From contig JALDRA010000001.1 of assembly GCA_031316235.1 (NCBI GenBank), positions 1,440,001-1,472,000 on the forward strand: 32,000 bases of DNA. Direction: 5' to 3'. The notes under the pieces were generated by a model that was not told the DNA's origin, made no database searches, and was given only the letters and a program-made list of their open reading frames with translations. Shown piece by piece: positions 5,146 to 31,760 of this stretch (the first letter of the stretch is position 1; each line of letters opens with the position of its first letter). The position numbers and the translations under genes are program-made. Source of the DNA: Candidatus Scalindua sp. GTDB lineage: Bacteria; Planctomycetota; Brocadiia; Brocadiales; Scalinduaceae.

Positions 5146-7782
5146 TCATTCCTTCTCCTCTTTCGAACCAAATATGCTGTTTATATGACTTGAAAGCACT
5201 GAAAACTCAAAAGGTTTCTTGATAATAAAGTCCACATTGAGCACCGCATTATCAGAGGACCCTATCTTCTCAGACCAACCCGTAATTAGCCCGACCTTTG
5301 GCTTTCTGTCCAGAGTCTCTATCAATTTTATGATATCTTTTCCACCGACCTCCGGCATGACGAGATCACAGAGCACGAGATCATAGCACTCTTCTTTTAA
5401 GAGTTTGACTGCATCACTCCCTCTACAGACACTCGTAACCTTTTGCCCCTCATCAGTGAGAAATTCACTCAGGAATTCACATACATAAGGCTCATCATCG
5501 ACAACCAGAATACGTAAACCCCTGAAAGTAAATTCCTGTTTCTCTCTGGAATCAACACCGAGACTACGAACTTTCTTACTCACAGGCAACCAGAGGGTAA
5601 TCGTCGTGCCTTTTCCCACTTCGCTTTCTACCTCTATCCTGCCTCCATGTCTTTTTATGATACCGTAGCTGACGCTCATGCCTAAACCGGTCCCCTTGGG
5701 CACCTTGGTAGTCAGAAAAGGATCAAATATGTTCCTGCGTACATCTTCATACATACCCTCTCCTGTGTCTGTGATACTTATACATACCATATCACCGCTC
5801 TTCCATGTGCGAAAGGAGAGACATCCTCCCTCCGGCATTGCATCTAAAGAGTTATTGATTATATTTAACAGCACCTCTCTCAGCTCAGTACTATTCCCCC
5901 TCACCATGGGTATTTCTTGCAGACCGTGCTCCTCTATTTGATAATCTATCCCGTTTGCCTGTGAAACAGTCTTCCATCTCGGCCTTGCGAAATCAATAAC
6001 CTCTTTTAACAGTTCCCCAACTTCTAAGGACGTAAAATGGGATTCGTCTGTTTCACTCCTCGTAAACTTCATCATCCTGCTCACTATCTCAGTGCCATCG
6101 GCGACACTTTTCAAAATCACATTCAGTTTATTGTTTATCTCTTCATGGTCTCTATATTTATCCTCCAGCAAAAGGGCATACCCTTTGATTATGGCAAGTA
6201 TGTTATTAAACTCATGTGAAATGCCTGAGGTCATCACCCCCATAGCCTTCAATTTCTCTGACTGCAGCAAGGCCTCCTCCATTTGATTGCGTTCAGTGAT
6301 GTCTTCTGCAATACCCTCAACAGAAATGACTTTATTCTGATTGTCAAAGACCGGCACTTCCTGGACTTTCAACGTCCGTATCGAACCGTTCTTGTGATAA
6401 ATTTCCACTTTATAGGGAGGCTGCTTGATACCTTTTGTACTGAGTTCTCTGTGATGCACCACTTCGGTATTTATGGGATCATCAGTCATGTATTCAGCAT
6501 AGTGGGTGAGAAACTCCTTTGGTGTATAGCCAAGTATGTTGGTTATTGAAGTGCTGATGTAGGTAAAGATACCTTCAGTATTGTGCGAGTAGAAAAAGTA
6601 ATTATCCTGGAGATTTTCGATAAGTCTTCTATATTTTGTCTCAGATTTTTCCAGCTCATTCTCCCCGCGTCTGCGTTTGATGAAGACCCCTATTTGGCTG
6701 CCGATTGCCGACATCATAGCAAGCAGTTCCCTGTCGGGCTGCCTTATCTCGTGGCTAAAGAAACTGATTGTTCCAAGTACCTCCTTACCACTCAGAATAG
6801 GAAAGCCAAAGGCCCCATGGAGCCCCTCTCTGGATGCAATTTTTGCCCGTGGGAAATTTGAGTCTCTGACTACATCCTCAATCCAGATAGGCTGAACACT
6901 CGATAAAACTCTCCCCGGTAATCCAATACCCGGGGGAAAGGTTCTTTGCCTGGTAATGGTTGCAAATTCCGAAACTTCAAGGGACGGAAGATGCCAGAGT
7001 TCGCAGCAATGTAACAGGCATTCCTTCTTATCCAGCAACCATATTTCCCCAAGATCCCATTCAAGAGCCTTGCATACAGCTTGAAGAATTTTTGAGAACG
7101 CCTCTCTTATTGTAGCGGCCTCTGCTAATACCTTTGTCACAATGTGTTGAGCTCTTAACCTGCTTTCCGCACTTTTTCGTTCGGTAATATCTTCCTTGAC
7201 CGCAATAAAATGGGTAATAATACCTTCACTGTTCCTGACTGGTGAGATAGATGCGGATTCCCAATAGTTTTTACCGTTCTTTTTCGTATTACAAAATGTT
7301 CCATGCCATTCTCTGCCAGACGTAATAGCCTCCCACAAGTTTTTGTGAACCTGAGAAGGTGTTTTCTGCGATTTCAGAATGCTGGGATTTCTCCCTATAA
7401 CCTCTCCTGAATCATAACCGGTTATCTGGGTAAATTTTGGATTGACATATTCAATGATACCGTCTTTATCAGTAATCACAATTGAGCTGGAGCTTTGCTC
7501 GATAGCTTGTGATAAACGGCATCTTTTTTCTTCCGTTCTTTTATGTTCGGCTATTTCCGACTTCAATATTTCGTTTGTTTCCGCCAGCTCTCTGTTGCAT
7601 TCGTCTAAGCGTTTCTCCAGAACCTCGATACGTATTCTTGACTCCTCTTCAACTTTTTCCTGATCTCGCTGCTCAGAGATCCGTGATCTTTCCCTGCTTC
7701 TTCTGGACACAAAAATTTTCTCTTTCAGACAATTATACTGCTGTAAGATGAGCGCTCCAATTCCCTTATTTTCTGATGACAT
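5146..7782 (-). CDS. Cytoplasmic hybrid sensor histidine kinase (coiled coil, PAS, GAF, PAS, HisKA, HATPase_c, C-terminal receiver)
   Basis: 878 aa with no TM segments. PAS-like blocks (IVITDKDGIIEYVNPKF..., FFYSHNTEGIFTYIS...). GAF-like block (EWDLGEIWLLD...GLPGRV...). H-box GISHEFNNILAII. N/G boxes (LLNIINNSLDAM, DTGEGM, GTGLGMS). Receiver domain (ILVVDDEP...VLCDLVMPE...KPF). Confidence 0.9.
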   Translation of the reverse strand: MSSENKGIGALILQQYNCLKEKIFVSRRSRERSRISEQRDQEKVEEESRIRIEVLEKRLDECNRELAETNEILKSEIAEHKRTEEKRCRLSQAIEQSSSSIVITDKDGIIEYVNPKFTQITGYDSGEVIGRNPSILKSQKTPSQVHKNLWEAITSGREWHGTFCNTKKNGKNYWESASISPVRNSEGIITHFIAVKEDITERKSAESRLRAQHIVTKVLAEAATIREAFSKILQAVCKALEWDLGEIWLLDKKECLLHCCELWHLPSLEVSEFATITRQRTFPPGIGLPGRVLSSVQPIWIEDVVRDSNFPRAKIASREGLHGAFGFPILSGKEVLGTISFFSHEIRQPDRELLAMMSAIGSQIGVFIKRRRGENELEKSETKYRRLIENLQDNYFFYSHNTEGIFTYISTSITNILGYTPKEFLTHYAEYMTDDPINTEVVHHRELSTKGIKQPPYKVEIYHKNGSIRTLKVQEVPVFDNQNKVISVEGIAEDITERNQMEEALLQSEKLKAMGVMTSGISHEFNNILAIIKGYALLLEDKYRDHEEINNKLNVILKSVADGTEIVSRMMKFTRSETDESHFTSLEVGELLKEVIDFARPRWKTVSQANGIDYQIEEHGLQEIPMVRGNSTELREVLLNIINNSLDAMPEGGCLSFRTWKSGDMVCISITDTGEGMYEDVRRNIFDPFLTTKVPKGTGLGMSVSYGIIKRHGGRIEVESEVGKGTTITLWLPVSKKVRSLGVDSREKQEFTFRGLRILVVDDEPYVCEFLSEFLTDEGQKVTSVCRGSDAVKLLKEECYDLVLCDLVMPEVGGKDIIKLIETLDRKPKVGLITGWSEKIGSSDNAVLNVDFIIKKPFEFSVLSSHINSIFGSKEEKE

Positions 7783-8999: not shown

Positions 9000-9262
9000 G
9001 TACTTTGAAAATTTAAATCCATTTATGGGTGTTCGCTAACAACAACTGCTGTTAGCGGCATAATAGGGAAGTCCCTTAAAGGGCACGGACCCGCCGCTGT
9101 AATCGGCTACTAAGACTGCATTTCACGATTTGTTTCGTGATAACAGGCCACTTCTCCCGGCTTTGACCGGGGTGGGAAGGCGCAGTCATCAGGATGACCC
9201 GATAGTCAGAAGACCTGCCTGTAACTGCTTCACATGATCTCCGATGGTAAAGAAGGTGAAGG
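9000..9262 (+). promoter_or_regulatory. Cobalamin riboswitch (copy A1) upstream of cbiMNQO
   Basis: Conserved core elements are visible: AATAGGGAAG...CCCGCCGCTGTAATCGG, GCCACT, GGGAAGGCGCAG, and the B12 box AGTCAGAAGACCTGCC at 9204-9219. Supporting helices include GACTGC/GCAGTC, CCCGG/CCGGG and TCACGA/TCGTGA. The segment 9249-9257 (AAAGAAGGT) is complementary to 9318-9326 in the terminator 5' arm, a candidate antiterminator. Confidence 0.88.
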
Positions 9263-10388: not shown

Positions 10389-10730
10389 GTGCTAAAATAT
10401 TTTACTGTTTTCGTATTCATATTATTGCTCACCCAATCGCATGTTTTGTATGCGAAAGGGCCGGACATGCCTGAACCAATAGAAGGCATTGAAGAGAAGG
10501 AAACAGTAGCATCTGAAGAAGATGTGAAATGGACAGGAATTGATGTAAGTATTGTAGGGAAATATGCCGAGAAATACGGCCGTCCACCAAGAGAACCTTA
10601 TATAAACACAGACCAGGGAGATCTTCTGCTTTTTGTTTTTACCTTTTTTGGCCTTGTCGGCGGTATTGTCATCGGCTACAACTTCAGGAAATTATTTGTT
10701 GAAGAAAAAGATCAAGGAATTTACCGCTAA
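10389..10730 (+). CDS. cbiN: Cobalt transport protein CbiN-like (small two-TM partner of CbiM)
   Basis: 113 aa with a GTG start. N-terminal TM plus C-terminal TM (DLLLFVFTFFGLVGGIVIGY), with a W.G.D...Y..P...P layout resembling CbiN. Position between cbiM and cbiQ. Confidence 0.7.
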   Translation: MLKYFTVFVFILLLTQSHVLYAKGPDMPEPIEGIEEKETVASEEDVKWTGIDVSIVGKYAEKYGRPPREPYINTDQGDLLLFVFTFFGLVGGIVIGYNFRKLFVEEKDQGIYR

Positions 10731-10751
10731 GTACGTAAAGAAAAATTAACT

Positions 10752-11534
10752 ATGGAAATATTAAAGCATGTTGTCATGGACCATTTTGCGCAAAGGAGCA
10801 ACTGGCTCACCAATATGGAAGTAAGGGTAAAACTATTTTATATTGGTACAGGTTTGATCCTTAATATTTTATCTGATGAAATTACAGTTCCATTACTATT
10901 TTTTGTCACATCCTTGATATTGTTAATGACCATAATGGTGCCGTTTGTCACATTAGGTCTCCGAATGATGATGCCCTTTTTATTCGGGATATTCATCCTG
11001 TTTATCATGGGATTGCATCATGGTGAGACAGTAATATTTTCCGGAACACTTTTCGGCTATGAACTTTCTTTAAAAAAAGAAGGATTACAGATTGGTCTGT
11101 TGTTATTCACAAAGGTGGCAGGGGGGGTAATGCTCCTGCTTTTATTATCCTTTACTACAACAATTACGAATATATGCATGGCTGCCCACTGGATGAAGAT
11201 ACCGGAGACCCTGATTGAAGTATTGTCATTTATATATAGATATCTGTTTTTACTAATTGAAGAAATGGAGACAATGATGTCTTCGCAAAGATGCAGACTG
11301 GGCTATGTTACATGGTTTAAGAGAATAAAATCATTTGGAAATCTTGCAGGTACACTGATTATCAGATCAATTATAAGAGCTGAAAATGCCCATGTTGCAA
11401 TGGTCTCCAGGGGTTATGTTGGCGGGAGGGTGCTGACCGCTCAACTTACTCCAATAGCAGGAAAAGATTATACAATACTTTTATTATGTGGAATCTTACT
11501 GGCCTTTTTATCCTATTTGGAGTTTTTCTGGTAA
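10752..11534 (+). CDS. cbiQ: ECF transporter transmembrane (T) component CbiQ
   Basis: 260-aa polytopic membrane protein with the C-terminal ..RS..RAE....AM.SRGY coupling-helix region typical of CbiQ/EcfT. Operon context. Confidence 0.85.
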   Translation: MEILKHVVMDHFAQRSNWLTNMEVRVKLFYIGTGLILNILSDEITVPLLFFVTSLILLMTIMVPFVTLGLRMMMPFLFGIFILFIMGLHHGETVIFSGTLFGYELSLKKEGLQIGLLLFTKVAGGVMLLLLLSFTTTITNICMAAHWMKIPETLIEVLSFIYRYLFLLIEEMETMMSSQRCRLGYVTWFKRIKSFGNLAGTLIIRSIIRAENAHVAMVSRGYVGGRVLTAQLTPIAGKDYTILLLCGILLAFLSYLEFFW

Positions 11535-11609
11535 GATATTAATGGGTGAAGAAAAGCTTGTAAGCATTTAACTGCAAGTATCTGTAAAAAATAACGTCCT
11601 ATTTGAATT

Positions 11610-12485
11610 GTGATGATTAAAATAAAAGCCGAAGAGTTAACTCATAAATACCCTGATGGTACACAGGCACTGAATGGTGCTAGCCTTGATGTTCGGGAGG
11701 GAGAATTTCTTGCAATTCTTGGCGCAAACGGTTCAGGGAAGACAACACTTCTTAAACATCTGAATGGCCTTTTAAAGCCGGTATCAGGTTCTGTAATATT
11801 AGATAATAAAGCATTGAGCGTGTTTAAGGCAGGTGAAGTTTTCAGGAAAGTAGGAATGGTTTTTCAAGATCCTAATGACCAGCTCATTGCCCCTACGGTT
11901 GAGGAGGATGTTGTCTTTGGACCGACAAATCTGGGTCTTGGCTATGATGAAATTATGAGCAGAGTTAATACTGCACTCGAACTGGTTAAAATGAAAGAGT
12001 TTGCCAAGAAGGCAATTCACGCGCTCAGTTATGGTCAGAGCAAACGAATATGTATAGCAGGAATTCTTGCCATGTGTCCGGAAATAATCATTTTAGATGA
12101 ACCAACTAGTGGACTTGATCCTGATGGTGTAAAAACCGTGATGAAAATACTGAATGCTCTAAATAAAAAACAGGGCATTACCATAATACTTGCCACAAAC
12201 TCTGTTGACCTTGTGCCTGTTCATATGGACAGGGTTGCTATTATGGATAAAGGTATCGTAGTGCAGGAGGGTACCCCGGAAAGTGTTTTTACAGACTCTA
12301 AGAAGCTTAATGGACTTAAGCTGGAGCTGCCGCAGATAGCACAATTAATGGAAGTATTGAGAGACAAGGAAAAGATGCCAATGAATCTACTCCCTCTGAC
12401 AATTGGCCAAGCTAGACAGGAACTCGCACATCTATTCAGCAGAGAAGATAATGTCCAGCATGCCGGTTCAATCTTACCTGCCTGA
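11610..12485 (+). CDS. cbiO: ECF transporter ATPase CbiO
   Basis: Walker A GANGSGKTT, Q-loop, signature LSYGQSKR, Walker B IIILDEPTSGLD. Last gene of the cbiMNQO set. Confidence 0.9.
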   Translation: MMIKIKAEELTHKYPDGTQALNGASLDVREGEFLAILGANGSGKTTLLKHLNGLLKPVSGSVILDNKALSVFKAGEVFRKVGMVFQDPNDQLIAPTVEEDVVFGPTNLGLGYDEIMSRVNTALELVKMKEFAKKAIHALSYGQSKRICIAGILAMCPEIIILDEPTSGLDPDGVKTVMKILNALNKKQGITIILATNSVDLVPVHMDRVAIMDKGIVVQEGTPESVFTDSKKLNGLKLELPQIAQLMEVLRDKEKMPMNLLPLTIGQARQELAHLFSREDNVQHAGSILPA

Positions 12486-21749: not shown

Positions 21750-21777
21750 TTGACAATAATTCTCCTGTCATTATATT
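21750..21777 (+). promoter_or_regulatory. Sigma70-like promoter for the btuB leader (riboswitch copy A2)
   Basis: TTGACA 21750-21755, a 16-nt spacer, TATATT 21772-21777. Same architecture and partial sequence similarity (TTGACAAYAATT) to the promoter at 8951. Confidence 0.45.
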
Positions 21778-21802: not shown

Positions 21803-22067
21803 GTACTTTGAAAATTTAAATCCATTTACGGGTGTTCGCTAACAACAACTGCTGTTAGCGGCATAATAGGGAAGTCCCTTAAAGGGCACGGACCCGCCGC
21901 TGTAATCGGCTACTAAGACTGCATTTCACGATTTGTTTCGTGATAACAGGCCACTTCTCCCGGCTTTGACCGGGGTGGGAAGGCGCAGTCATCAGGATGA
22001 CCCGATAGTCAGAAGACCTACCCGTAGATGCTTCACGTTGACTCTTCGAAGGTAAAGAAGGTGAAGG
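21803..22067 (+). promoter_or_regulatory. Cobalamin riboswitch (copy A2), near-identical duplicate of A1
   Basis: 21803-22019 equals 9000-9216 with one mismatch (C at 21829 vs T at 9026). The B12 box reads AGTCAGAAGACCTACC (G to A at 22020). Similarity decays until the shared GGTAAAGAAGGTGAAGG at 22051-22067. Confidence 0.85.
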
Positions 22068-22100
22068 AAAGAGACGTCTTTTATTATTTAACCAATATAG

Positions 22101-22137
22101 AACCCGAATCTTCCCATCGAAGATTCGGGTTTTTTTA
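22101..22137 (+). terminator. Intrinsic terminator following riboswitch A2
   Basis: Perfect 12-bp stem AACCCGAATCTT / AAGATTCGGGTT, a 7-nt loop, and a T7 tract. The sequence is unrelated to the A1 terminator. Confidence 0.85.
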
Positions 22138-22254
22138 TTGGTGAAACAAATCACCCCGTAAAACCCGCAAAAGACACAAAAAATATTTCCATAGCATTTC
22201 GTGGATAATGAAGGCAATCATTTGAGTTAACATTTTAATAAAACTTTTATTTTA

Positions 22255-22445
22255 TGTGAGATATAAGGGAATCCCTGCCGAGTTAAAACTCGGTTAACGG
22301 GAGCTGCCCCGCAACTGTAATCGGTGACGAAATCTGCAAAATGCCACTGGATATCAGCCGTTTAAGCGTTTTAAACTGTTTATACGGCTTCCCGGGAAGG
22401 TGCAGATACCAGGATGATCCGAAAGCCAGGAGACCTGTCTTACAC
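22255..22445 (+). promoter_or_regulatory. Cobalamin riboswitch (B), second and sequence-distinct aptamer immediately upstream of btuB
   Basis: Shows AAGGGAATCCC...GCTGCCCCGCAACTGTAATCGG, GCCACTGG, CCGGGAAGGTGCAGA and the B12 box AGCCAGGAGACCTGTC. ATCTGCA/TGCAGAT helix. It ends about 35 nt before the btuB ATG, with a GAGGGG Shine-Dalgarno in between. Confidence 0.9.
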
Positions 22446-22480
22446 GTTTTTTAATTTTTTTCCGAGGGGAAAGATGTTTT

Positions 22481-24415
22481 ATGAAAAATTGTTTAATCGT
22501 AGCATTTGCAGCACTGATTGCACTCCTGCCAGTTATCGGCTATTCAGAGAGTAATACTCTTACCAGAGAAAATAGTGAGAGTGGAAAAACAGGAAAGGAT
22601 AAAAATGCTCCCGTAGAACCTGAGACAGATGATATCCAGGAAATCGTAGTAACAGCAACAAGGACGGAAACACCCACGAGTCAGTTGATAGATTCAGTTA
22701 CCACGATTACCGAGAAACAGATTGAACAACAGAAGGCGAGAACCGTTTTTGAAACCCTTCGCAGTGTACCGGGATTGAGCATACAAAAGTCCGGAGGCAT
22801 CGGGAGAACAACAAGTGTATCATTACGTGGTTCCAGTGCTGATCAGGTTCTGGTCATGATTGATGGTGTCCAGGTGAACAGCCCCACCACAGGATCTTTC
22901 GATTTTGCAAACCTGACCACTGACAACCTGGAAAGCATAGAGGTCGTAAGGGGCCCGCAAAGTACTCTGTACGGCTCCGATGCAATGGGTGGTGTAATAA
23001 ACATCATTACGAAAAAAGGGAAGGGAAAACCACAGTTCAGTATACGATCAGAAATTGGGACACCGGAGAGAACTTTTAATGAAGCAATCAGCTCAAGCGG
23101 CAGTATCGAAGACTTTCATTATTCCGTAGATATGGCAAGGATTGACAGCGATGGCCGCGGTGCTGACGACGATTATGACAAGTGGAACATGTCCGCAAGA
23201 CTTGGATACAAACTCAACGACAAGTTACAGTTTGATACAAGCTTACGATACAATTACTCCAAGGTGGGTATCGACGACGGACCTTTCATGCAGGACCCCA
23301 ACAGGTTATCCAAAAATCAGGACATGGTAATTACTTCTCTCCTGACCCATTCGATAACAAACTGGTGGAGCCATAAACTGAAATTTTCCTATACCGCTTC
23401 AAACCTGAAAAGCAGGGACAAGCCGAATTCCGCTGCTTCAGACCCATTTGGCACTTCGAGATTCCGGCTCGATACCCAGATCTATACCGGAGATTATCAG
23501 CACACCCTGAGGTATAAGGAGATCAACACCTTCATATTTGGCTTTGAATTTGAAGACCAGGAGGCAGACAATCGAAGCGTTGATCCAGCCCTGGTCAACA
23601 GAGGCTGGTACGTTCAGAATCAATTGAAACTATGGGATAGATTCTTCTTCAATGCCGGAGTGAGAGTTGATGACAACAACACCTATGGAAAGGCCGTGAA
23701 TCCCAAATTTTCCGTTGCCTATCATCTCAAGGAAACAGATACAAAATTCAAGGCCAATTACGGGAAAGGGTTCAGGGGACCGACTCTCAATGAGTTGTTT
23801 TTCCCCGATTTCGGTGACCCGACTCTGGATCCGGAGGAGAGTGAGAGCTATGATTTTGGTTTTGAGCAATACCTGCTTGAGGACAGGCTCTTTTTTGGCG
23901 TAACCTATTTTAATAACAGATATTCAAACCTTATTCAGGCAGTCGATACCGGCGGATTTATCTTCAGGGCACGAAATATCGGTATGGTCAGGACCGAAGG
24001 TGTAGAGGCAGAAATCGTAATTAAACCCTTTGAGGGGCTAACCATGAGGGGTACGTTTACGAGGTTACATACCAGAGATGAGTTGAAAAAGGAGTTGATC
24101 AGGCAGCCAAGCAAGCAGGGTTCCGTTACTATTAATTATAGCTTTTTAGATAAATTTAACCTTAACATTGATAATACCATTGTCGGAAATTCAAGAGAGG
24201 GGAGAAACGGTGGAGGCATCAAACCACCTGGAAGGCCTGTTATCAGGACTAACGACGGCTATTTCAAACTTGACGTAGCATTTACTTATCAGCATTCAAG
24301 ACATTTTCAATTATATTCCAGGATTGAAAACATGGCGAATCAGAAATTCGATGAGGTATTAGGCTTCAGGTCACCAGGGGCAAGGTTCTTTCTTGGAGTA
24401 AAACTTAGCCTATAA
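22481..24415 (+). CDS. btuB: TonB-dependent outer-membrane corrinoid receptor (BtuB-like)
   Basis: 644 aa. Signal peptide, TonB box (IQEIVVTATR), plug domain (RGS...VLV.IDGV..N, RGPQSTLYGSDAMGGVINIITK), and a beta-barrel ending in a terminal aromatic-rich strand. Directly downstream of B12 riboswitches. Confidence 0.9.
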   Translation: MKNCLIVAFAALIALLPVIGYSESNTLTRENSESGKTGKDKNAPVEPETDDIQEIVVTATRTETPTSQLIDSVTTITEKQIEQQKARTVFETLRSVPGLSIQKSGGIGRTTSVSLRGSSADQVLVMIDGVQVNSPTTGSFDFANLTTDNLESIEVVRGPQSTLYGSDAMGGVINIITKKGKGKPQFSIRSEIGTPERTFNEAISSSGSIEDFHYSVDMARIDSDGRGADDDYDKWNMSARLGYKLNDKLQFDTSLRYNYSKVGIDDGPFMQDPNRLSKNQDMVITSLLTHSITNWWSHKLKFSYTASNLKSRDKPNSAASDPFGTSRFRLDTQIYTGDYQHTLRYKEINTFIFGFEFEDQEADNRSVDPALVNRGWYVQNQLKLWDRFFFNAGVRVDDNNTYGKAVNPKFSVAYHLKETDTKFKANYGKGFRGPTLNELFFPDFGDPTLDPEESESYDFGFEQYLLEDRLFFGVTYFNNRYSNLIQAVDTGGFIFRARNIGMVRTEGVEAEIVIKPFEGLTMRGTFTRLHTRDELKKELIRQPSKQGSVTINYSFLDKFNLNIDNTIVGNSREGRNGGGIKPPGRPVIRTNDGYFKLDVAFTYQHSRHFQLYSRIENMANQKFDEVLGFRSPGARFFLGVKLSL

Positions 24416-24433: not shown

Positions 24434-25417
24434 ATGCAAAATGAATCCTTCAACAATACAATTATGAATCAAAATACTCACATTACGCTGTTCTTTGTTT
24501 TCTGGTTTATTCTGACACAATGCAGTCTGATTGCGCATGCAGGGCCTGTAAATTCAGGAAAAACAAAAACCTTTATGGACGATACTTCCTTTTCTCTACA
24601 GTTTGATAATCCGCCTCAGCGAATTATTTCTGTTTCCCCGAGTGCAACAGAAATGTTAGGAGTTATTGATGCGGATTCAATGCTGGTAGGAGTTTCGCTG
24701 TATTCTTATTATCCTCCTTCTGTCAAAAACCTTCCAAAGGTGGGCAGTTATGTTAATCCCAATATTGAACAAATCATCTCCTTAACTCCTGATCTGGTTG
24801 TCATGTCCTTTGAGGGAGCGCCGAGGAGTGATGTAAATCATCTACGGAGGCTGAATATAAATGTCGCAGTCTTACGCAGTGAAAAATTTTCTGATATTAT
24901 AAAAAACATTAACTGGCTCGGAGAGGTCTTAGCACATCAGAAAGAAGCAAAAGAAGCGGTGGATAATTTAGAGACCCGTTATGAACGAATTCGATCCCTG
25001 GTTCAGGGAATACCAAAGCCCCGTGCTTTTTATTCAATCGCCCTGAATCCCATAACATCCGTTGGGGCCAAAAGCTTTATTAACAGTCTGATTCATGATG
25101 CAGGAGGAATTAACATTACCGGGGATATCGATCAGGCATATCCCCGGTTAACCATAGAAAGTGTTATTGCCATGTCGCCGGATGTTCTGCTGTTTTCAAG
25201 CGGTATGGGCAATGAGCTTGACATGGAAAATCAGATGCCTTTCTGGAAGCGTTGGAATAATATCCCTGCCGTACGCGACCAGAGGTTCGTTGAAGTCAAT
25301 CATGACATCATCAATCGTCCTGGTCCAAGAGTTGTCGAGGCACTGGCTTCAATAGCTCAACAATTTCATCCTGAAAAAGCAGAGTCGATTCAAAGGATTA
25401 TGGATTGTGGAAAATGA
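24434..25417 (+). CDS. btuF: Periplasmic corrinoid-binding protein of ABC importer (BtuF-like)
   Basis: 327 aa. N-terminal signal/anchor, RIISVSPSATEML and PDLVV motifs of cluster A-II (BtuF/FhuD-type) binding proteins. AGGAG Shine-Dalgarno 10 nt upstream. Confidence 0.85.
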   Translation: MQNESFNNTIMNQNTHITLFFVFWFILTQCSLIAHAGPVNSGKTKTFMDDTSFSLQFDNPPQRIISVSPSATEMLGVIDADSMLVGVSLYSYYPPSVKNLPKVGSYVNPNIEQIISLTPDLVVMSFEGAPRSDVNHLRRLNINVAVLRSEKFSDIIKNINWLGEVLAHQKEAKEAVDNLETRYERIRSLVQGIPKPRAFYSIALNPITSVGAKSFINSLIHDAGGINITGDIDQAYPRLTIESVIAMSPDVLLFSSGMGNELDMENQMPFWKRWNNIPAVRDQRFVEVNHDIINRPGPRVVEALASIAQQFHPEKAESIQRIMDCGK

Positions 25418-26421
25418 AAAACCGTAAAATATTGTTGTTCACGATTCCGTTTTGCTGGATCTTTATTTTTTTACTCTGTTGGAAATCCGGCACGGTAATA
25501 ATTACCTGGGCACAACTGAAAAACACGCTCTTTGGAGCGGCGCCTGCTGAACAGACTAACATTATATTATTGAAGGTGCGGTTGCCCAGACTGCTTCTGG
25601 CTGCACTTACCGGCGCTGCTCTGTCTTTAACCGGAGCCGTTTTTCAGGCATTACTGCGAAACCCGCTTGCTGATCCCTATATCCTCGGGATTTCCGGCGG
25701 CTCGGCACTGGGTGCGGTGATCGCCATGGGCTTTGGTTTACATTTGATGATTATCGGTTTTCAAATTGTCCCGATTTTTTCCATATGCGGTGCACTTTTA
25801 ACCATACTGTTTGTATATAATTTTTCCCGAATCGGCAATTATTTACCGACGCAGACGATGCTGCTGGCCGGTATTTCATTACAGGCGATGCTCTCCGCAT
25901 TAATTTTGTTTCTGCAAACACTGATGGACCCCTTACAATTGATGCAGGTTTTTACCTGGTTAATGGGAAACATACCAACTCCGGAATACGGAAATTTATT
26001 ATGGATTTTTCTCTATTCTGTTCTGGCAATCGGAGTGATCCTCCCGCAGGCTCGGAATCTCAACGCACTTACTCTGGGAGAACTGGATGCCAAAATTGTT
26101 GGTATTGATGCGGAACGATTAAAAAAGACTCTTTTTTTCGCCTGCTCGCTTTTAACCGGAAGCATAGTCGCTTTAACCGGGCTAATCGGATTTGTAGGGA
26201 TCATCATCCCACATTTATTACGATTGTTAGTTGGGCCTGATCACAGGCGTTTATTGCCCGCCTGTGTTGTTGCCGGCAGTATTTTTATGGTTGTTGCCGA
26301 TACCCTGGCACGTTCACTGCTTTCACCAACTGAAATTCCTGTTGGTGTTATCACCGCTCTTGTCGGTGGGCCGTTTTTTTTGTTTTTACTATGGAAAAAT
26401 AAGCGTAAGGGAATGCGATGA
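25414..26421 (+). CDS. btuC: ABC importer permease, FecCD/BtuC family
   Basis: Polytopic protein with RLPRLLLAALTGAALSLTGAVFQALLRNPLADPYILGISGG and GIIIPHLLRLLVG. The ATG at 25414 makes an ATGA overlap with the btuF stop. The track start at 25405 is a TTG. Confidence 0.88.
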   Translation: MKNRKILLFTIPFCWIFIFLLCWKSGTVIITWAQLKNTLFGAAPAEQTNIILLKVRLPRLLLAALTGAALSLTGAVFQALLRNPLADPYILGISGGSALGAVIAMGFGLHLMIIGFQIVPIFSICGALLTILFVYNFSRIGNYLPTQTMLLAGISLQAMLSALILFLQTLMDPLQLMQVFTWLMGNIPTPEYGNLLWIFLYSVLAIGVILPQARNLNALTLGELDAKIVGIDAERLKKTLFFACSLLTGSIVALTGLIGFVGIIIPHLLRLLVGPDHRRLLPACVVAGSIFMVVADTLARSLLSPTEIPVGVITALVGGPFFLFLLWKNKRKGMR

Positions 26422-27254
26422 ACGAACAATATAAAAACGTAACGGTTGAGCAGCTTTCTTATTCGTATACAGAAACTCCCTTTATTCATGATCTGTCTTT
26501 TGACTTTAAGGCAGGAGAATTGTTCAATGTTGTCGGTCCTAACGGAGCCGGTAAATCCACACTGTTATATCTGCTTGGCGGGATTATCAAACCACAGGCT
26601 GGACAGGTTTTACTGGGTGGCATACCGTTATCCTCTTTTAAACGTCAGGCACTTGCCAGAATAATGACTATCATTCCGGCTGAGTCAAATATTGCATTTG
26701 ACTTCACTGTGTATGATATCGTATCCATGGGGCGTTATCCTTATCATAGTCCACTCGATTCTCTAACCGTTAACGACCGTGAAATAATAAGGGAAGTTAT
26801 CGAAAGGACCGGATTAACGAAATATACAGATAAGATTTTTAACCGGCTTTCAAGCGGTGAAAGACAGCGGGTCTTAATTGCCCGGGCTTTGGCACAGAAA
26901 ACATCTATTTTATTGATGGACGAACCGACTGTCCACCTGGACATTCATTATCAATTGGATATTTACCGGCTCGCACAATCCCTTGCACATGATAAGAATC
27001 TATCTGTTTTCATGATCTCGCATGATTTAAATTATGCATCGATATATAGTGACCGTATTATGTTAATGAATGAAGGACGTATCGTCAAAACCGGCACTCC
27101 TGATGATATTTTCCAGCCGGAACTGCTCAGTGATGTTTACGGTACCGCATTGTCTGTTTATCCCCACCCTGAAACAGGCCAGCCTACTATCTGGCCCCGG
27201 GTAATAAGCGGCAGTATCATAAACAAGATGACAACCCCCGGTGAACTTTTGTGA
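26418..27254 (+). CDS. btuD: ABC importer ATPase (BtuD/FepC-like)
   Basis: Walker A GPNGAGKST, signature LSSGERQR, Walker B ILLMDEPTVHLD. ATGA overlap with the btuC stop. Confidence 0.88.
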   Translation: MNEQYKNVTVEQLSYSYTETPFIHDLSFDFKAGELFNVVGPNGAGKSTLLYLLGGIIKPQAGQVLLGGIPLSSFKRQALARIMTIIPAESNIAFDFTVYDIVSMGRYPYHSPLDSLTVNDREIIREVIERTGLTKYTDKIFNRLSSGERQRVLIARALAQKTSILLMDEPTVHLDIHYQLDIYRLAQSLAHDKNLSVFMISHDLNYASIYSDRIMLMNEGRIVKTGTPDDIFQPELLSDVYGTALSVYPHPETGQPTIWPRVISGSIINKMTTPGELL

Positions 27255-27315
27255 TTATTAATTTCCGCTATACACCAGAAAAAACGTGAGTTACTATCAA
27301 AGTAAAAAAGGACAC

Positions 27316-28464
27316 ATGGCAATGTTAATAGGAATACATGACGGGTTTGAAATACACCGCAAAGAAAAAATTATCTGTGTCAACTTTCTTGTTCAACACA
27401 GGGTGATTTCTACGTGCGGAGTAAACGGAGGATTACGTGACGATCTGGAGGGTATCGCTAATCATCAATTATGCGAGCCTCTGGGGCACGATAGAAAAGG
27501 ATTGAAGGTTATAGCCGAAAGTCCTTTTGATTATTTAAGGTCGGTTTGTGAAAAATACGGACTCTCTCCTGAAAAAAGGGCGCTCCTTGGCACTGCTGCA
27601 AACATGAACTTCGCTGCAGTGGAACCGCTGGAATATCGAGGCCTTAAGGTAGTGGCGATAAGTACGGGAGGTGTGAAAACAAACGCCGGCAGAGCCGGTG
27701 ACCCTGCAAATAGGTATGAAAAGGACGGTAAATTTATTAGTACACAAGGTGAAGTTGATGAACCTCGTGGGACAATAAACACAATAGTTATTATGAATAA
27801 AGAACTCACGCATGGAGCTATGGTCGGGTCGCTTGTTACCGCCTCCGAGGCAAAAGCCGCAGCTCTTCAGGAACTTGCTGTTAATTCCCGTTATTCATCC
27901 AGGCTAGCTACCGGAACGGGAACCGATCAGATTGGCATTGCGTCAAGGCTGACCGGAGAAATTCCCCTGACCAGCGCAGGTAAGCACACGAAGTTAGGTG
28001 AACTCCTGGGTTTGACGGTACAAAAGTCCATAAAAAAAACCCTGGCATTACAGGATTCTCTCACCCCTCAGAGTCAGCGCTCAGCCAAAATTCATCTAGA
28101 ACGATTCGGAATTGATACAAAATCAATGAAGGAAAAAATCTGCACTCTTCTGAATGAAGAAAAGTCTAAACTGCTTGAAAAGAATTTTGCAACTATTAAC
28201 CGTGATCCCGTTACTGTCGCCGCAACTTCCGCACTTGTTCACTTGCGTGATAAAATAGAGTGGGGAATCTTACCGGAAAACTGTCTACCCGAAATCTTTT
28301 CGTCCTATGGGGCACAGCTCAGTGCATCCATTTCAGGAAAGTTTGAGAGGATAGACTATTATCGGGAACGTCTTTCTCATGAACACATGGGAATCAGCAG
28401 TCATACGTTCACTAACTTCATTTGTAAATCATTCGCTCTGGGGTTTAATGAAAAATGGGAATAA
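27316..28464 (+). CDS. cbiZ: Adenosylcobinamide amidohydrolase CbiZ with a ~140-aa C-terminal extension
   Basis: CbiZ-like blocks VISTCGVNGGL, TAANMNFAAV, GTINTIVIMNKELTHGAMVGSLVTASEAKAAALQEL and TGTGTDQIGIA in the first ~250 residues. The remaining ~140 residues are not recognised. Start is ambiguous (GTG 27286 in the track, ATG 27316 or 27322). Confidence 0.8.
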   Translation: MAMLIGIHDGFEIHRKEKIICVNFLVQHRVISTCGVNGGLRDDLEGIANHQLCEPLGHDRKGLKVIAESPFDYLRSVCEKYGLSPEKRALLGTAANMNFAAVEPLEYRGLKVVAISTGGVKTNAGRAGDPANRYEKDGKFISTQGEVDEPRGTINTIVIMNKELTHGAMVGSLVTASEAKAAALQELAVNSRYSSRLATGTGTDQIGIASRLTGEIPLTSAGKHTKLGELLGLTVQKSIKKTLALQDSLTPQSQRSAKIHLERFGIDTKSMKEKICTLLNEEKSKLLEKNFATINRDPVTVAATSALVHLRDKIEWGILPENCLPEIFSSYGAQLSASISGKFERIDYYRERLSHEHMGISSHTFTNFICKSFALGFNEKWE

Positions 28465-28512
28465 GAGCATTGGAACAAAATTTTGCAGGGAAGATTCAGA
28501 ACCGGGAAACAC

Positions 28513-29214
28513 ATGAATAATCAAAAATTTTCTTTTGCCTGTTCATTTAGCGGCGGTAAAGATTCATGTCTTGCCATATACCGTGCTATACAGGCTGGGG
28601 GTGACGCAAAAAAACTCATTACAATGTTTGCTGAGGGTGGCGAGCGTAGTCGTTCTCATGGTTTACCCCTCTCTGTAGTGACTGCGCAATCACAAGCCAT
28701 GAACATACCTTTGCTCACACAGGCAACATCGTGGAATGATTACGAAAAGCACTTCACCGCCGCTTTAACATCTGTAAAGAAAGAAGGCGTAAAGCACATT
28801 GTTTTCGGTGATATCGATTTACCGGAACACCGCGATTGGGAAGAACGTACCTGTTGTGGAGTAGGGCTGCACCCTTTTCTTCCCTTGTGGCGAGAAGAGA
28901 GAAGATCACTCCTGAGAGAATTTATTGAACTTGGGTTTTGTGCCATGATCATTGCCGTTAAAGAGAATATTTTGCCGGCATCTTTACTTGGTAAAACACT
29001 CTCGCGCACAGTGATTGAAGAAATTGAACGCCAGGGTGTGGATGCATGTGGCGAAGAAGGAGAGTACCATACGCTTGTATATGACGGTCCCCTTTTTCAG
29101 TCAACACTGCAGTTTACACAGGGAGAAGTGGTGCTTCGAGATGGTTATTGGTTTTTGGATCTCCACGTACACAATAAACATATAACCCCTCCGCGAATAT
29201 CGTGGAATTGTTAA
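28513..29214 (+). CDS. Dph6/MJ0570-type N-type ATP pyrophosphatase (PP-loop ATPase, diphthine-ammonia-ligase-like domain)
   Basis: PP-loop SFSGGKDS at residues ~13-20 from ATG 28513. FGDI and the C-terminal GEEGEYHTLVYDGPLF motif are characteristic of this family as I recall it. The track start at 28483 is a TTG. Confidence 0.72.
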   Translation: MNNQKFSFACSFSGGKDSCLAIYRAIQAGGDAKKLITMFAEGGERSRSHGLPLSVVTAQSQAMNIPLLTQATSWNDYEKHFTAALTSVKKEGVKHIVFGDIDLPEHRDWEERTCCGVGLHPFLPLWREERRSLLREFIELGFCAMIIAVKENILPASLLGKTLSRTVIEEIERQGVDACGEEGEYHTLVYDGPLFQSTLQFTQGEVVLRDGYWFLDLHVHNKHITPPRISWNC

Positions 29215-29226
29215 GAAGGGGATAAA

Positions 29227-29346
29227 ATGGAAATACAGGGTACGGAAAAAGGCATACGTGTATCACGCTCATCCTGGATAACTATTGCCGTAACTTTAAT
29301 AGGTAAAGAACTATTCTACTATAGATGGAGAAAGGGGAGGAAATAA
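29227..29346 (+). CDS. Candidate 39-aa small membrane protein, translationally coupled to exbB
   Basis: Below the track's size cutoff. My translation is MEIQGTEKGIRVSRSSWITIAVTLIGKELFYYRWRKGRK. AAGGGG Shine-Dalgarno 6 nt upstream. Its TAA (29344-29346) overlaps the exbB ATG (29346) as TAATG. Confidence 0.3.
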   Translation: MEIQGTEKGIRVSRSSWITIAVTLIGKELFYYRWRKGRK

Positions 29347-29960
29347 TGCTGAATCTCATTCTAAAAGGTGGCCCGGTAATGTACCCGCTGCTGATTTGTT
29401 CACTTATCTCTCTTACAATCACTATTGAGCGAATTATCTTCTGGTCGAATGAAACAAGAAGGACAGACCGTAAACTGCTGGATCAGGTATTCGGTGAGAT
29501 TGAAAAGGGGTTTTATGATAAAGCCATTGCTCTGGGTAATACATCAAAAGATTATATGATAAAAATAGTGTGTTATGCGCTTACACATCATAAATCTTCC
29601 AGGATAAACATGCTGGAAATGGCGGCAGAAGATGAGATAGACAGGATGAAACGGGGCATGGCAATCCTGGATACCATAATAACCATGGCACCCCTGCTCG
29701 GGATTCTGGGTACCGTTACCGGAATAATAGTGTCATTTGATTTTCTCGGAAAGGCCGGTGTAGAAGATCCGAAGGCCGTTACCGGAGGGATAGCCCAGGC
29801 ACTGATTACTACCGCGGCTGGCCTGACTATAGCCCTTGCTACCATAATCCCATACAACTATTTTGTTGTCAAGCTGGAACGGGCTGCACGAAATATAGAA
29901 AAGTGTACAACAAGTTTCGAAATATATCATAAAGAGGGCAGAGATGAAGATAAATCTTAA
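29346..29960 (+). CDS. exbB: MotA/TolQ/ExbB proton-channel protein ExbB
   Basis: From ATG 29346: MLNLILKGGPVMYPLLICSLISL..., three TM segments, and the conserved LGILGTVTGII...GIAQALITTAAGLTIA region. Confidence 0.88.
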   Translation: MLNLILKGGPVMYPLLICSLISLTITIERIIFWSNETRRTDRKLLDQVFGEIEKGFYDKAIALGNTSKDYMIKIVCYALTHHKSSRINMLEMAAEDEIDRMKRGMAILDTIITMAPLLGILGTVTGIIVSFDFLGKAGVEDPKAVTGGIAQALITTAAGLTIALATIIPYNYFVVKLERAARNIEKCTTSFEIYHKEGRDEDKS

Positions 29961-30351
29961 TCTGAGAAGAAAGGGGCCCAGGATAGAGATGATACCACTG
30001 ATTGATGTCGTCTTTCTCCTACTGGTCTTTTTTATCTATGCAATGCTTTCCATGGTAGTGCATCGCGGATTTAAAGTGGATCTTCCGCAGGCGACAACGG
30101 CGGAGATAGACAAGGAAGATTATGCTTCAATTACCGTAGATAAGGATAACAGGGTACTTCTTGACAAGGAAGAGATCCTGATCGAGAACCTTTCTGAAGA
30201 AGTAAAGACAAAGATTAAGAAGGGTGTTAAGATATTTATTAATGGTGATAAAGAAGCCGACCTCGGAGTCGTAATAAACGTACTTGATATCTTGAGAAGG
30301 GACGAGATACAGGAAGTGTACTTTGAGACACAAGCTGTTGAGTATAAATAA
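29944..30351 (+). CDS. exbD: Biopolymer transport protein ExbD/TolR
   Basis: 135 aa with the IEMIPLIDVVFLLLVFFI N-terminal TM and a periplasmic domain. Overlaps the exbB 3' end by 17 nt. Confidence 0.88.
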   Translation: MKINLNLRRKGPRIEMIPLIDVVFLLLVFFIYAMLSMVVHRGFKVDLPQATTAEIDKEDYASITVDKDNRVLLDKEEILIENLSEEVKTKIKKGVKIFINGDKEADLGVVINVLDILRRDEIQEVYFETQAVEYK

Positions 30352-30444: not shown

Positions 30445-31251
30445 ATGTTTAAGAAAAATTTAATTATAGCCGGATCGATAGCTTTGTCGCTGCACGCAGC
30501 ATTAATTTTGATGTCGCCAGATATCACATCTGAACCGAAGGTGATGTTCCGAAAGGGTGAATCCAGTCTTAAGATAACCCTCGTACCGTCAGCAGCATCA
30601 ACTGCCTCCCCAAAACCTATAAATAATACACAAAAAAATGTCCTGAAGGTGGAAGACAAAAAACTAAAGGGACCCATGCCTTTACAAAAACCAGAACCCG
30701 TTACCGTAACAAAACCTGTTAACAAAAGAGAAAAACATGTCCTCAGGATGGAAGAAAAAACACTCGACAGCCCGAAACCCGTGAAAAATCCGAAAATACC
30801 GATAGAGAAGCAGGTAAAAGTTGAAGACGATATTGTGCGAAAAACGAAAGAGACAGCCTATAGTACTCAATACTTTAAATCTGAAACCAAGATCAAGGAT
30901 CAACAGAGACAAAAACAGAAGATGACCACTGATAATTCCAAAGAGATAATAGCGGATGTTAAGGCAAAAGGTGTAACAACGGGAGCTATGGTTGAAAACG
31001 TCTTTAAACCATCTTACCCCTCTCGCTGCAAAAGGCAAGGTCATGAAGGATCGACTCTGTTGGAAGTGACAATTCTCAGTAATGGTAAGCGCGGAAACAT
31101 AGAGATAATACAATCCGCTGGCTGTGAATCACTTGATAAAGCCGCCATTAACGCTTTAAAGAAAGCAAAATATATACCTGCAAAACGGATAGGTGTTCCT
31201 TTTACTGCCAAAAAGAAGATCGTGTTTAATTTTAAACTGGAGGATTCCTGA
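30445..31251 (+). CDS. tonB: Energy transducer TonB
   Basis: 268 aa. N-terminal TM with SxxxH (SLHAALILM). Lys/Pro-rich spacer with an internal repeat (QKNVLKVEDKKLKGP / EKHVLRMEEKTLDSP). C-terminal TonB domain (YPSRCKRQGHEGSTLLEVTILSNGK...AAINALKKAKYIPA). Confidence 0.88.
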   Translation: MFKKNLIIAGSIALSLHAALILMSPDITSEPKVMFRKGESSLKITLVPSAASTASPKPINNTQKNVLKVEDKKLKGPMPLQKPEPVTVTKPVNKREKHVLRMEEKTLDSPKPVKNPKIPIEKQVKVEDDIVRKTKETAYSTQYFKSETKIKDQQRQKQKMTTDNSKEIIADVKAKGVTTGAMVENVFKPSYPSRCKRQGHEGSTLLEVTILSNGKRGNIEIIQSAGCESLDKAAINALKKAKYIPAKRIGVPFTAKKKIVFNFKLEDS

Positions 31252-31598: not shown

Positions 31599-31736
31599 TA
31601 CCATTCCCGGGCTTCGTATTTACATGAGGTAAAAATATCCTTTTTTATACTGAGGCAAGATGCATGATTAATAAGTGCTTAGGTTTGCCTAAAAACCAAA
31701 TCCTGGTTGCTGGTATCCCCGGACAAAAAAATGCCG

Positions 31737-31760
31737 AGGAGTTTGCCCGCTCCTTTTTTT
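31737..31760 (+). terminator. Weak candidate intrinsic terminator after the btuB-tonB operon
   Basis: AGGAG/CTCCT 5-bp stem with an 8-nt loop, followed by T7 and preceded by A7 (bidirectional shape). The short stem keeps confidence low. Confidence 0.3.

Follow-up and report, generated by a model that had tools for sequence, protein, structure and literature searches.

The 32,000-nucleotide stretch of Candidatus Scalindua DNA analysed here (the window; contig JALDRA010000001.1, positions 1,440,001 to 1,472,000) contains an operon of ten genes, all on the + strand and separated by short gaps or overlaps, whose sixth gene encodes a PP-loop ATP pyrophosphatase of the DUF71 family (Table 1). This gene begins 48 nt after the cbiZ stop codon (28464) and ends 12 nt before the ATG of a small open reading frame (ORF) at 29227; an alternative TTG start lies at 28483. 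An earlier reading by a model that saw the letters alone (the sequence-only reading) had described this close placement correctly, although its distances of 49 and 13 nt were each off by one. The two motifs that it had named, SGGKDS and GEEGEYHT, were both present in the ORF as described.

Two cobalamin riboswitches (RF00174) stand in tandem upstream of the operon and on the same strand. No strong terminator-like site was found between the riboswitches and position 31736, with weak matches only inside the operon, and the hairpin between the two aptamers is probably the expression platform of riboswitch 1. The PP-loop gene is thus predicted to be co-transcribed, under both riboswitches, with CbiZ and a corrinoid import system that is complete for both the outer and the inner membrane. 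This agrees with the B12-riboswitch operon proposed in the sequence-only reading, and a Pfam search of the window placed the other operon genes in the families it had named. GC content is even over the operon (0.39-0.47). The order receptor-BtuFCD-CbiZ-DUF71-ExbBD-TonB and the tandem riboswitch are kept in relatives whose DUF71 proteins are 80-83% identical to this one. Because GC is uniform and synteny is conserved, a recent insertion or passenger gene was considered unlikely.

Table 1. Positions of the features in the window (first to twentieth lines) and of the AsnB-like genes in other loci (remaining lines, numbered within each locus).
Feature	Position	Strand	Remarks
Third cobalamin riboswitch	9010-9236		RF00174; 98% copy of riboswitch 1; before cbiM, cbiQ and ABC-ATPase cobalt-uptake genes
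Sigma-70-like promoter match	21750-21777	+	TTGACA-16-TATATT, 11/12; just 5' of riboswitch 1; consensus match only
Cobalamin riboswitch 1	21813-22039	+	RF00174; 70.8 bits, gathering threshold 31.5
Terminator-like hairpin	22099-22133	+	15-bp stem and T-run; between both riboswitches
Cobalamin riboswitch 2	22233-22456	+	RF00174; 74.8 bits, gathering threshold 31.5; ends 24 nt before receptor start codon
TonB-dependent outer-membrane receptor, BtuB-like	22481-24415	+	Plug and TonB_dep_Rec_b-barrel
BtuF-like periplasmic binding protein	24434-25417	+	PF01497, E 8.7e-31
BtuC-like permease	25405-26421	+	PF01032 FecCD, E 1.4e-86
BtuD-like ABC ATPase	26418-27254	+	PF00005, E 2.9e-29
CbiZ, adenosylcobinamide amidohydrolase	27286-28464	+	PF01955, E 1.1e-55; domain at residues 36-248
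DUF71-B12 subgroup PP-loop ATP pyrophosphatase	28513-29214	+	233 aa, ATG start
PP-loop SGGKDS, residues 13-18	28549-28566	+	ATP alpha/beta-phosphate binding
GEEGEYHT motif, residues 180-187	29050-29073	+	His186 at the position of Glu188 in PF0828/Dph6
Small ORF	29227-29346	+	39 aa; one hydrophobic segment; C-terminal LFYY-WRKGR; peptide conserved in L081, L083 and L086
ExbB	29346-29960	+	PF01618; ORF opens at 29325
ExbD	29944-30351	+	PF02472
TonB	30445-31251	+	PF03544
First T-run terminator-like hairpin 3' of the operon	31736-31755	+	
Direct repeat, first copy	9000-9233		234 nt, 98% identity
Direct repeat, second copy	21803-22036		234 nt, 98% identity
AsnB-like gene, L033	7997-8929		
AsnB-like gene, L048	7219-8196		
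AsnB-like gene, L037	3977-4927		
AsnB-like gene, L093	4417-5343		
AsnB-like gene, L095	6001-6924		
AsnB-like gene, L096	6001-6984		
AsnB-like gene, L097	5102-6025		
AsnB-like gene, L090	8001-9581		fusion

The protein showed the features expected of its family. It matched Pfam PF01902 (Diphthami_syn_2) over profile positions 5-215 of 219 with E 3.6e-47 (161.1 bits against a gathering threshold of 23.2), which is far beyond chance, and the split models PF01902_N and PF28410_C were both found in its relatives. Residues S13, G14, G15, K16, D17 and S18 of the PP-loop were invariant in an alignment of 25 homologs. An AlphaFold2 model built on 25 homologs (mean pLDDT 93.2, pTM 0.89) predicts the Rossmann-like alpha/beta ATP-binding fold of the N-type PP-loop ATP pyrophosphatases. 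The top folds returned by Foldseek from the Protein Data Bank (PDB) were PH1257 (2D13) and PF0828 (3RK1, 3RJZ and 3RK0), with TM ~0.8, followed at lower rank by QueC, GMP synthetase, the nitrile synthetase ArtA and argininosuccinate synthase; a sequence search of the PDB gave no solved relative closer than PF0828 and PH1257. The nearest homologs belong to Candidatus Scalindua and the Brocadiales, that is, to anammox Planctomycetota, and the homolog search yielded 2,965 protein clusters at E <= 1e-10. By profile match and predicted fold, the gene product has an adenylating PP-loop fold and belongs to the DUF71/COG2102/MJ0570 family, which bears out the family proposed in the sequence-only reading.

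The protein does not, however, have the marks of a strict Dph6, the other half of that proposal. Its best NCBIfam match, the equivalog TIGR03679 (Dph6_archaeal), reached 119.3 bits against a cut-off of 197.3, and two models of archaeal second-copy DUF71 proteins, PAB0415_fam and TTX_0299, gave 86.1 and 65.6 bits, both under their 250-bit cut-offs. The GEGGEFET of PF0828 aligns with GEEGEYHT, and therefore Glu188 of Dph6 is a His in the Scalindua protein; the strict Dph6 motif EGGE/DxE188 is absent. This His was invariant in the 25 aligned homologs and present in 97 of 97 homologs from the fetched loci, second copies that had not been selected by motif included. A true Dph6 was rejected on the TIGR03679 score, the change of Glu188 to His and the bacterial host.

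DUF71 has previously been divided into Dph6 and a bacterial and second-archaeal group, DUF71-B12 (de Crecy-Lagard, Forouhar, Brochier-Armanet, Tong and Hunt 2012, Biol Direct 7:32; PMC3541065). The published DUF71-B12 signature is ENGE[F/Y]H, with His for Glu188, and the residues of Dph6 predicted to bind elongation factor 2 (EF-2) also differ in this subgroup (PMC3541065). With EEGEYH, the Scalindua protein has the published His and an N-to-E variant at the second position. It also has the clustering that goes with the subgroup, as it shares an operon with a TonB-dependent receptor, BtuFCD and CbiZ behind RF00174. Bacteria make no diphthamide and are without known diphthamide genes (PMC3541065). 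The NCBI and JGI pipelines nevertheless name bacterial homologs 'diphthine--ammonia ligase', although the proteins score under the Dph6 cut-off; the name is a propagated misannotation, as the survey described below also confirmed, and the UniRef label 'Dph6-related ATP pyrophosphatase' is the safer one for bacterial members.

A role in B12 salvage was proposed for DUF71-B12 in the same paper, in which B12 transporter genes adjoin 75 of 102 members and cbiB adjoins 18 of 102 (PMC3541065). The subgroup still appears as 'function unknown, B12 salvage' in a review that the same group published in 2016. The B12 link of the PP-loop gene is thus already published. The sequence-only reading had presented a corrinoid step as one not assigned to this family; since the 2012 prediction covers the same subgroup, its central idea is a rediscovery. 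A text search of PMC3541065 gave no hit for 'riboswitch'.

To describe the genomic context of the family, we scanned one genome per species, which gave 586 confirmed relatives, and used the best 80 loci with 10 kb on each side (loci carry L numbers and proteins P numbers below). Neighbours were crude longest-ORF calls that were clustered and annotated through cluster representatives, with high-GC loci such as L024, L049 and L066 poorly resolved. The association with B12 recurred: cob/cbi genes or a B12 riboswitch lay within 10 kb in 26 of the 80 loci, or in 29 when transport-only contexts were included, and these loci were scattered over the entire neighbour-joining tree and many phyla. The refuting outcome named in the sequence-only reading, a lack of recurrent association with B12 genes or riboswitches, was therefore not observed. 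A B12 riboswitch was found in at least 19 loci, which is a lower bound because the covariance model rested on nine RF00174 aptamers that MAFFT had aligned only roughly. In at least eight loci (L027, L033, L041, L048, L062, L072, L076 and L077) the riboswitch heads a same-strand run that includes DUF71, and in L072 it lies immediately 5' of the DUF71 gene. The most frequent neighbours were a BtuC-type permease (16 of 80 loci), CobS (15), BtuF (15, plus 8 of a second BtuF-like cluster), TonB-dependent receptors (14), CobU (14) and CobT (12), followed by CbiP/CobQ (7), a CobD-type aminotransferase (6), CbiB (5), CobC (5) and DUF6580 (5). The usual partners of DUF71 are thus BtuFCD and TonB-dependent receptors, CobU/S/T/C, and CbiB with CobD.

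Two of these contexts have features of their own. Flavobacterial operons read CobU-DUF71-BluB::CobT-CobS-CobC, and no CbiB was found in them within 10 kb. In the Flavobacterium locus L039 the gene after DUF71 (10660-12345) encodes a nitroreductase(BluB-like)::CobT fusion of 561 aa, and unannotated proteins of 558-562 aa occupy the same position in L054, L063 and L065. The DUF6580 membrane protein (PF20221) adjoins DUF71 in L010 (392-973), L047 (802-1380), L025, L032 and L044, which are Chitinophagaceae-type and Pirellulaceae loci with otherwise little B12 context; this protein could belong to a corrinoid transporter without having been recognised as such.

One branch of the family has a conserved partner gene. 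A protein of ~308 aa that consists of the asparagine-synthetase PP-loop domain only (PF00733), with its own SGGLDS, a C-terminal zinc ribbon and no glutaminase domain, is encoded beside DUF71 in nine lineages (L033, L048, L037, L093, L095, L096, L097, L038 and, as a fusion, L090). The hosts are Desulfobacterales, a deltaproteobacterial metagenome-assembled genome (MAG), Omnitrophota, Hydrogenedentota, Actinomycetota, Thermodesulfovibrionales, a MAG labelled Patescibacteria group, a Nitrososphaerales archaeon and, with the genes fused, the metagenome contigs L090/L091. Across phyla, identity to the query within this large and well-conserved AsnB-like family is 54-71%. When members were chosen arbitrarily, three of three had a DUF71 neighbour, and every AsnB-like context inspected was a B12 salvage locus with an adjacent DUF71-B12 gene. 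The two proteins are also fused to each other in P0135 and P0257. Database names for the AsnB-like proteins are 'hypothetical protein', 'asparagine synthase-related protein' and 'asparagine synthase (glutamine-hydrolysing)' only. In the Actinomycetota MAG locus L096, an IS200/Y1 transposase gene (7010-7651) splits the pair. The AsnB::DUF71 fusions described in 2012 come from a few archaea only, include a glutaminase domain and were interpreted as providing Dph6 with ammonia (PMC3541065). Neither the glutaminase-less AsnB-like partner in B12 operons nor a BtuF-like fusion was found in sections 11 and 12 of that paper.

The BtuF-like fusion is P0121, from the Omnitrophota locus L037, in which a linker of 8 residues connects DUF71 with a BtuF-like domain that has no signal peptide. 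As a domain fusion it is Rosetta-stone-type evidence for an enzyme that handles a corrinoid. Free-standing signal-less BtuF-like relatives of 262-270 aa also exist. One follows DUF71 in L093, where the order is CobU-CobT-CobS-CbiB-CobD-AsnB-like-DUF71-BtuF-like-BtuF-BtuC-BtuD-receptor, and another is found in L092, with no DUF71 within 6 kb. In L076 the gene before DUF71 encodes a CobQ synthetase half without glutaminase domain (241 bits, positions 2-237 of 480). Extra DUF71 paralogs, all with the His motif, were present in L041 (in tandem), L061, L075, L072 and L010, and such paralogs would fit several related sites on one substrate.

CbiZ and DUF71 share a locus in three bacterial lineages: Scalindua (the window and L081-L088), L048 and L053. 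In the window and in its Scalindua-type relatives L081-L088, cbiZ lies directly before DUF71. The deltaproteobacterial MAG locus L048 contains a riboswitch, receptor, CobA, BtuF::CbiZ fusion, AsnB-like gene and DUF71. Both of the other lineages have CbiZ as a fusion, BtuF-like::CbiZ of 687 aa in L048 (5214-7277) and BtuD::CbiZ of 489 aa in L053 (5229-6698; Alkalihalophilus marmarensis). A 'strict anti-correlation' of DUF71-B12 with CbiZ in bacteria has been reported (PMC3541065); in its strict form it does not hold. As CbiZ stands beside DUF71, the two probably do different jobs in Scalindua. CbiZ was near DUF71 in only 2 of the 80 loci (L048 and L053), and was rejected as a general partner of the family. 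The link to CbiZ chemistry drawn in the sequence-only reading is therefore not a general one.

The remaining features of the operon and the window were as follows. The two copies of the direct repeat cover two riboswitches, the third one and riboswitch 1, and the tandem layout looks like the result of a recent duplication of a whole aptamer. The tandem riboswitch is kept in the Scalindua relatives L081-L087 and also occurs in the Desulfobacterales locus L033 (5106-5871). On the opposite strand upstream lie genes for CbiA/CobB, CbiX, CbiD, CbiC, a CbiE/T-like protein, CbiG and several corrin methylases, an anaerobic-type corrin pathway; with these genes and the import operon, the organism both makes and imports corrinoids. 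The start of CbiZ is possibly ATG 27322, since its Scalindua relatives are 380 aa long. CbiZ has a C-terminal extension of ~140 aa (28036-28464, residues about 250-392), for which no Pfam family was found and which is not shared with the CbiZ of L048; relatives keep a similar total length. No PDB relative of CbiZ was found. The 39-aa ORF gave no Pfam match, its stop codon overlaps the exbB ATG (TAATG), and its product may serve the ExbBD system as a small membrane subunit. ATG 29346 was taken as the ExbB start because relatives are 199-204 aa long. Some Scalindua-type relatives have an extra DUF4430 gene (PF14478) between receptor and btuF (L083, 3354-3737; L086, 3406-3795) that is absent from the window.

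What reaction could the PP-loop enzyme carry out in this setting? The recurrent corrinoid-gene neighbours, the riboswitches and the P0121 fusion make a corrinoid its likely substrate. Dph6 amidates a carboxylate via an adenylate, and asparagine synthetase, QueC, GMP synthetase and argininosuccinate synthetase all adenylate a substrate oxygen, after which a nitrogen nucleophile displaces AMP. By analogy, adenylation of a carboxylate followed by amidation or re-ligation, as put forward in the sequence-only reading, is plausible and has gained some indirect support. In the scheme that we favour, the enzyme would bind an imported, incomplete or damaged corrinoid in the cytoplasm; ATP would adenylate a corrinoid side-chain carboxylate to give acyl-AMP and PPi; and ammonia or an amine would displace AMP to form an amide. 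With NH3 as the nucleophile, an acetate or propionate side chain would be re-amidated ahead of nucleotide-loop assembly, and deamidated or incompletely amidated imported corrinoids would become substrates for that assembly. The role of the enzyme would then be complementary to that of CbiZ, not redundant with it. We favour re-amidation because the partners are amide-forming or corrinoid-binding and because corrinoids offer several equivalent carboxylate/amide positions. For the Scalindua enzyme we put this forward tentatively, as the leading candidate with somewhat less than an even chance of being right. The wider proposal is more doubtful, although possible: that DUF71-B12 proteins are ATP-dependent corrinoid side-chain amide ligases which perform an unrecognised repair step beside CbiZ, alone in Scalindua and elsewhere as a module with the AsnB-like protein and a signal-less BtuF-like carrier.

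Several observations weigh against re-amidation. De novo producers already have CbiA and CbiP for the amidation of corrin side chains, and CbiA is encoded in the same window; a separate enzyme would therefore need a substrate that those two cannot use. The AsnB-like partner and the BtuF-like fusion are absent from the Scalindua operon and come from another branch of the family. In a second DUF71::BtuF protein, P0122 (Elusimicrobiota), a signal-like hydrophobic stretch is retained between the domains, which makes it ambiguous; it may have arisen by read-through between neighbouring genes or be anchored in the membrane, and was not counted as clean evidence for that reason. Only roughly one species-level locus in three showed B12 context within 10 kb, and clades with the His motif and without B12 context include Bacillales, Acinetobacter/Paenibacillus, Janthinobacterium, Deinococcus and beta/gamma-proteobacteria. 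The authors of the 2012 paper noted that His in place of Glu188 may mean a different chemistry (PMC3541065). Finally, no biochemical or genetic work on any DUF71-B12 member was found in the openly accessible full-text literature, where only the 2012 prediction and papers citing it turned up.

The alternative that survives best is the 2012 hypothesis itself, that DUF71-B12 either stands in for bacterial CbiZ as pseudo-B12 amidohydrolase or offers an alternative route to that step (PMC3541065). Here the lower-ligand loop of pseudo-B12 or of a cobamide analogue would be removed or replaced in an ATP-dependent manner; for example, the amide oxygen of the f side chain would be adenylated and the product hydrolysed to cobyric acid for CbiB. 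Genomes with CbiB, with few exceptions, carry either CbiZ or DUF71-B12, anticorrelated in bacteria (PMC3541065), and our survey is consistent with this in that CbiZ was rare near DUF71 (2 of 80 loci) and DUF71 often had CbiB and CobD as neighbours in loci from which CbiZ was absent (L037, L089, L090, L093 and L097). The chemistry is conceivable, as one PP-loop enzyme, QueC, can adenylate the oxygen of an amide, and QueC and ArtA were among the fold matches. Amide cleavage is, however, without precedent in the DUF71 family, the AsnB-like and CobQ-half partners suggest that an amide is formed instead, and CbiZ and DUF71 occur in one locus in Scalindua, L048 and L053. This co-occurrence could be explained if the Scalindua CbiZ were cobinamide-specific, as has been argued for archaea (PMC3541065). 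On this evidence we regard the hypothesis as unlikely for the Scalindua enzyme.

A further alternative, the re-ligation raised in the sequence-only reading, which we consider slightly less likely still, keeps the acyl-adenylate and changes the nucleophile. The f-propionate of (adenosyl)cobyric acid, either imported or left by CbiZ, would be adenylated and coupled to 1-amino-2-propanol or its phosphate, so that the enzyme would help or bypass CbiB. An acyl-adenylate and an amine are fitting chemistry for the family, and the position directly after CbiZ in the window suits such a step, as do the flavobacterial operons in which no CbiB was found. Neighbouring CbiB/CobD genes (in the five loci just listed) and the published cbiB neighbours (18/102; PMC3541065) can be read in the same way, although a bypass seems needless where CbiB adjoins DUF71. 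Adjacency to CbiZ is, moreover, rare (2 of 80), and re-ligation leaves the paralogs and the second, AsnB-like PP-loop partner unexplained. Salmonella, which is not known to have a DUF71 protein, makes cobinamide phosphate with CbiB.

It is improbable that the gene is a passenger, or that its enzyme acts on a non-corrinoid substrate (such as a peptide, an RNA or a precursor of the lower ligand or the linker) and sits in the operon by regulatory convenience or chance. The roughly two thirds of species-level loci without a B12 gene or riboswitch in 10 kb speak for it, as do the Bacillales, Acinetobacter, Janthinobacterium and Deinococcus that keep the His motif without B12 context. Against it stand the embedding of the gene between cbiZ and exbB with the short gaps given above, the uniform GC, the gene order kept in relatives, the recurrence of B12 context in many phyla over the tree, and the fusion to a BtuF-like domain. 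A Dph6 identity, that is, a diphthine-ammonia ligase (EC 6.3.1.14) that amidates diphthine on EF-2, has database names and the best NCBIfam match on its side and is effectively refuted by the sub-threshold TIGR03679 score, the His for Glu188, the bacterial origin of the Ca. Scalindua homologs and the embedding of the gene in a B12 operon.

How does the re-amidation that we favour compare with known systems? The Scalindua protein shares with the published DUF71-B12 subgroup a bacterial PP-loop DUF71 domain, His for Glu188 and BtuFCD-type clustering, and differs in lying directly after a bacterial CbiZ and in having Glu where the motif logo has Asn (PMC3541065). With Dph6 (yeast YLR143W; PF0828, PH1257, MJ0570) it shares the Pfam family, the fold, the PP-loop, the G-E-x-G-E core and, by analogy, a chemistry expected to begin with substrate adenylation; it differs in the points already given and is only 25-28% identical in structural alignments. 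CbiP/CobQ and CbiA/CobB of the de novo pathway catalyse the kind of net reaction that we propose, ATP-dependent amidation of a corrin carboxylate, and are found near DUF71 as CbiP (7 of 80 loci) and as the CobQ synthetase half of L076. In contrast to DUF71, they have an unrelated CobQ/CobB/MinD/ParA nucleotide-binding fold (PF01656) and a glutaminase domain, and they use a phosphoryl intermediate (ADP + Pi), not an adenylate. The known cobamide-remodelling enzymes, CbiZ and the CbiR of Akkermansia, resemble the proposed enzyme in being encoded in B12-regulated salvage loci and in working on imported corrinoids prior to reassembly of the nucleotide loop. Unlike DUF71, both are hydrolases without an ATP requirement and have unrelated folds. 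The C-terminal domain of asparagine synthetase B (PF00733) is a PP-loop amide synthetase that forms an acyl-adenylate, and its glutaminase-less member is the partner of one DUF71-B12 branch; it belongs to a separate PP-loop family, and the window contains no such gene.

Microbes exchange B12 and its analogues, and the majority of bacteria that require these compounds depend on importing and rebuilding them. The window instance is not new in itself. To the widespread DUF71-B12 family it adds one anammox member whose gene context is more complete than usual, with CbiZ, an entire TonB system and a tandem riboswitch. The family is now easier to test, as the CbiZ co-locus, the AsnB-like partner and the BtuF-like fusion narrow the hypotheses and guide the choice of proteins and substrates. 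If re-amidation or re-ligation were true, it would be a new enzymatic step in cobamide salvage that would explain the use of degraded corrinoid pools, and it would bear on anammox reactors, sediments and gut communities and on how 'B12 auxotrophy' is read from genomes.

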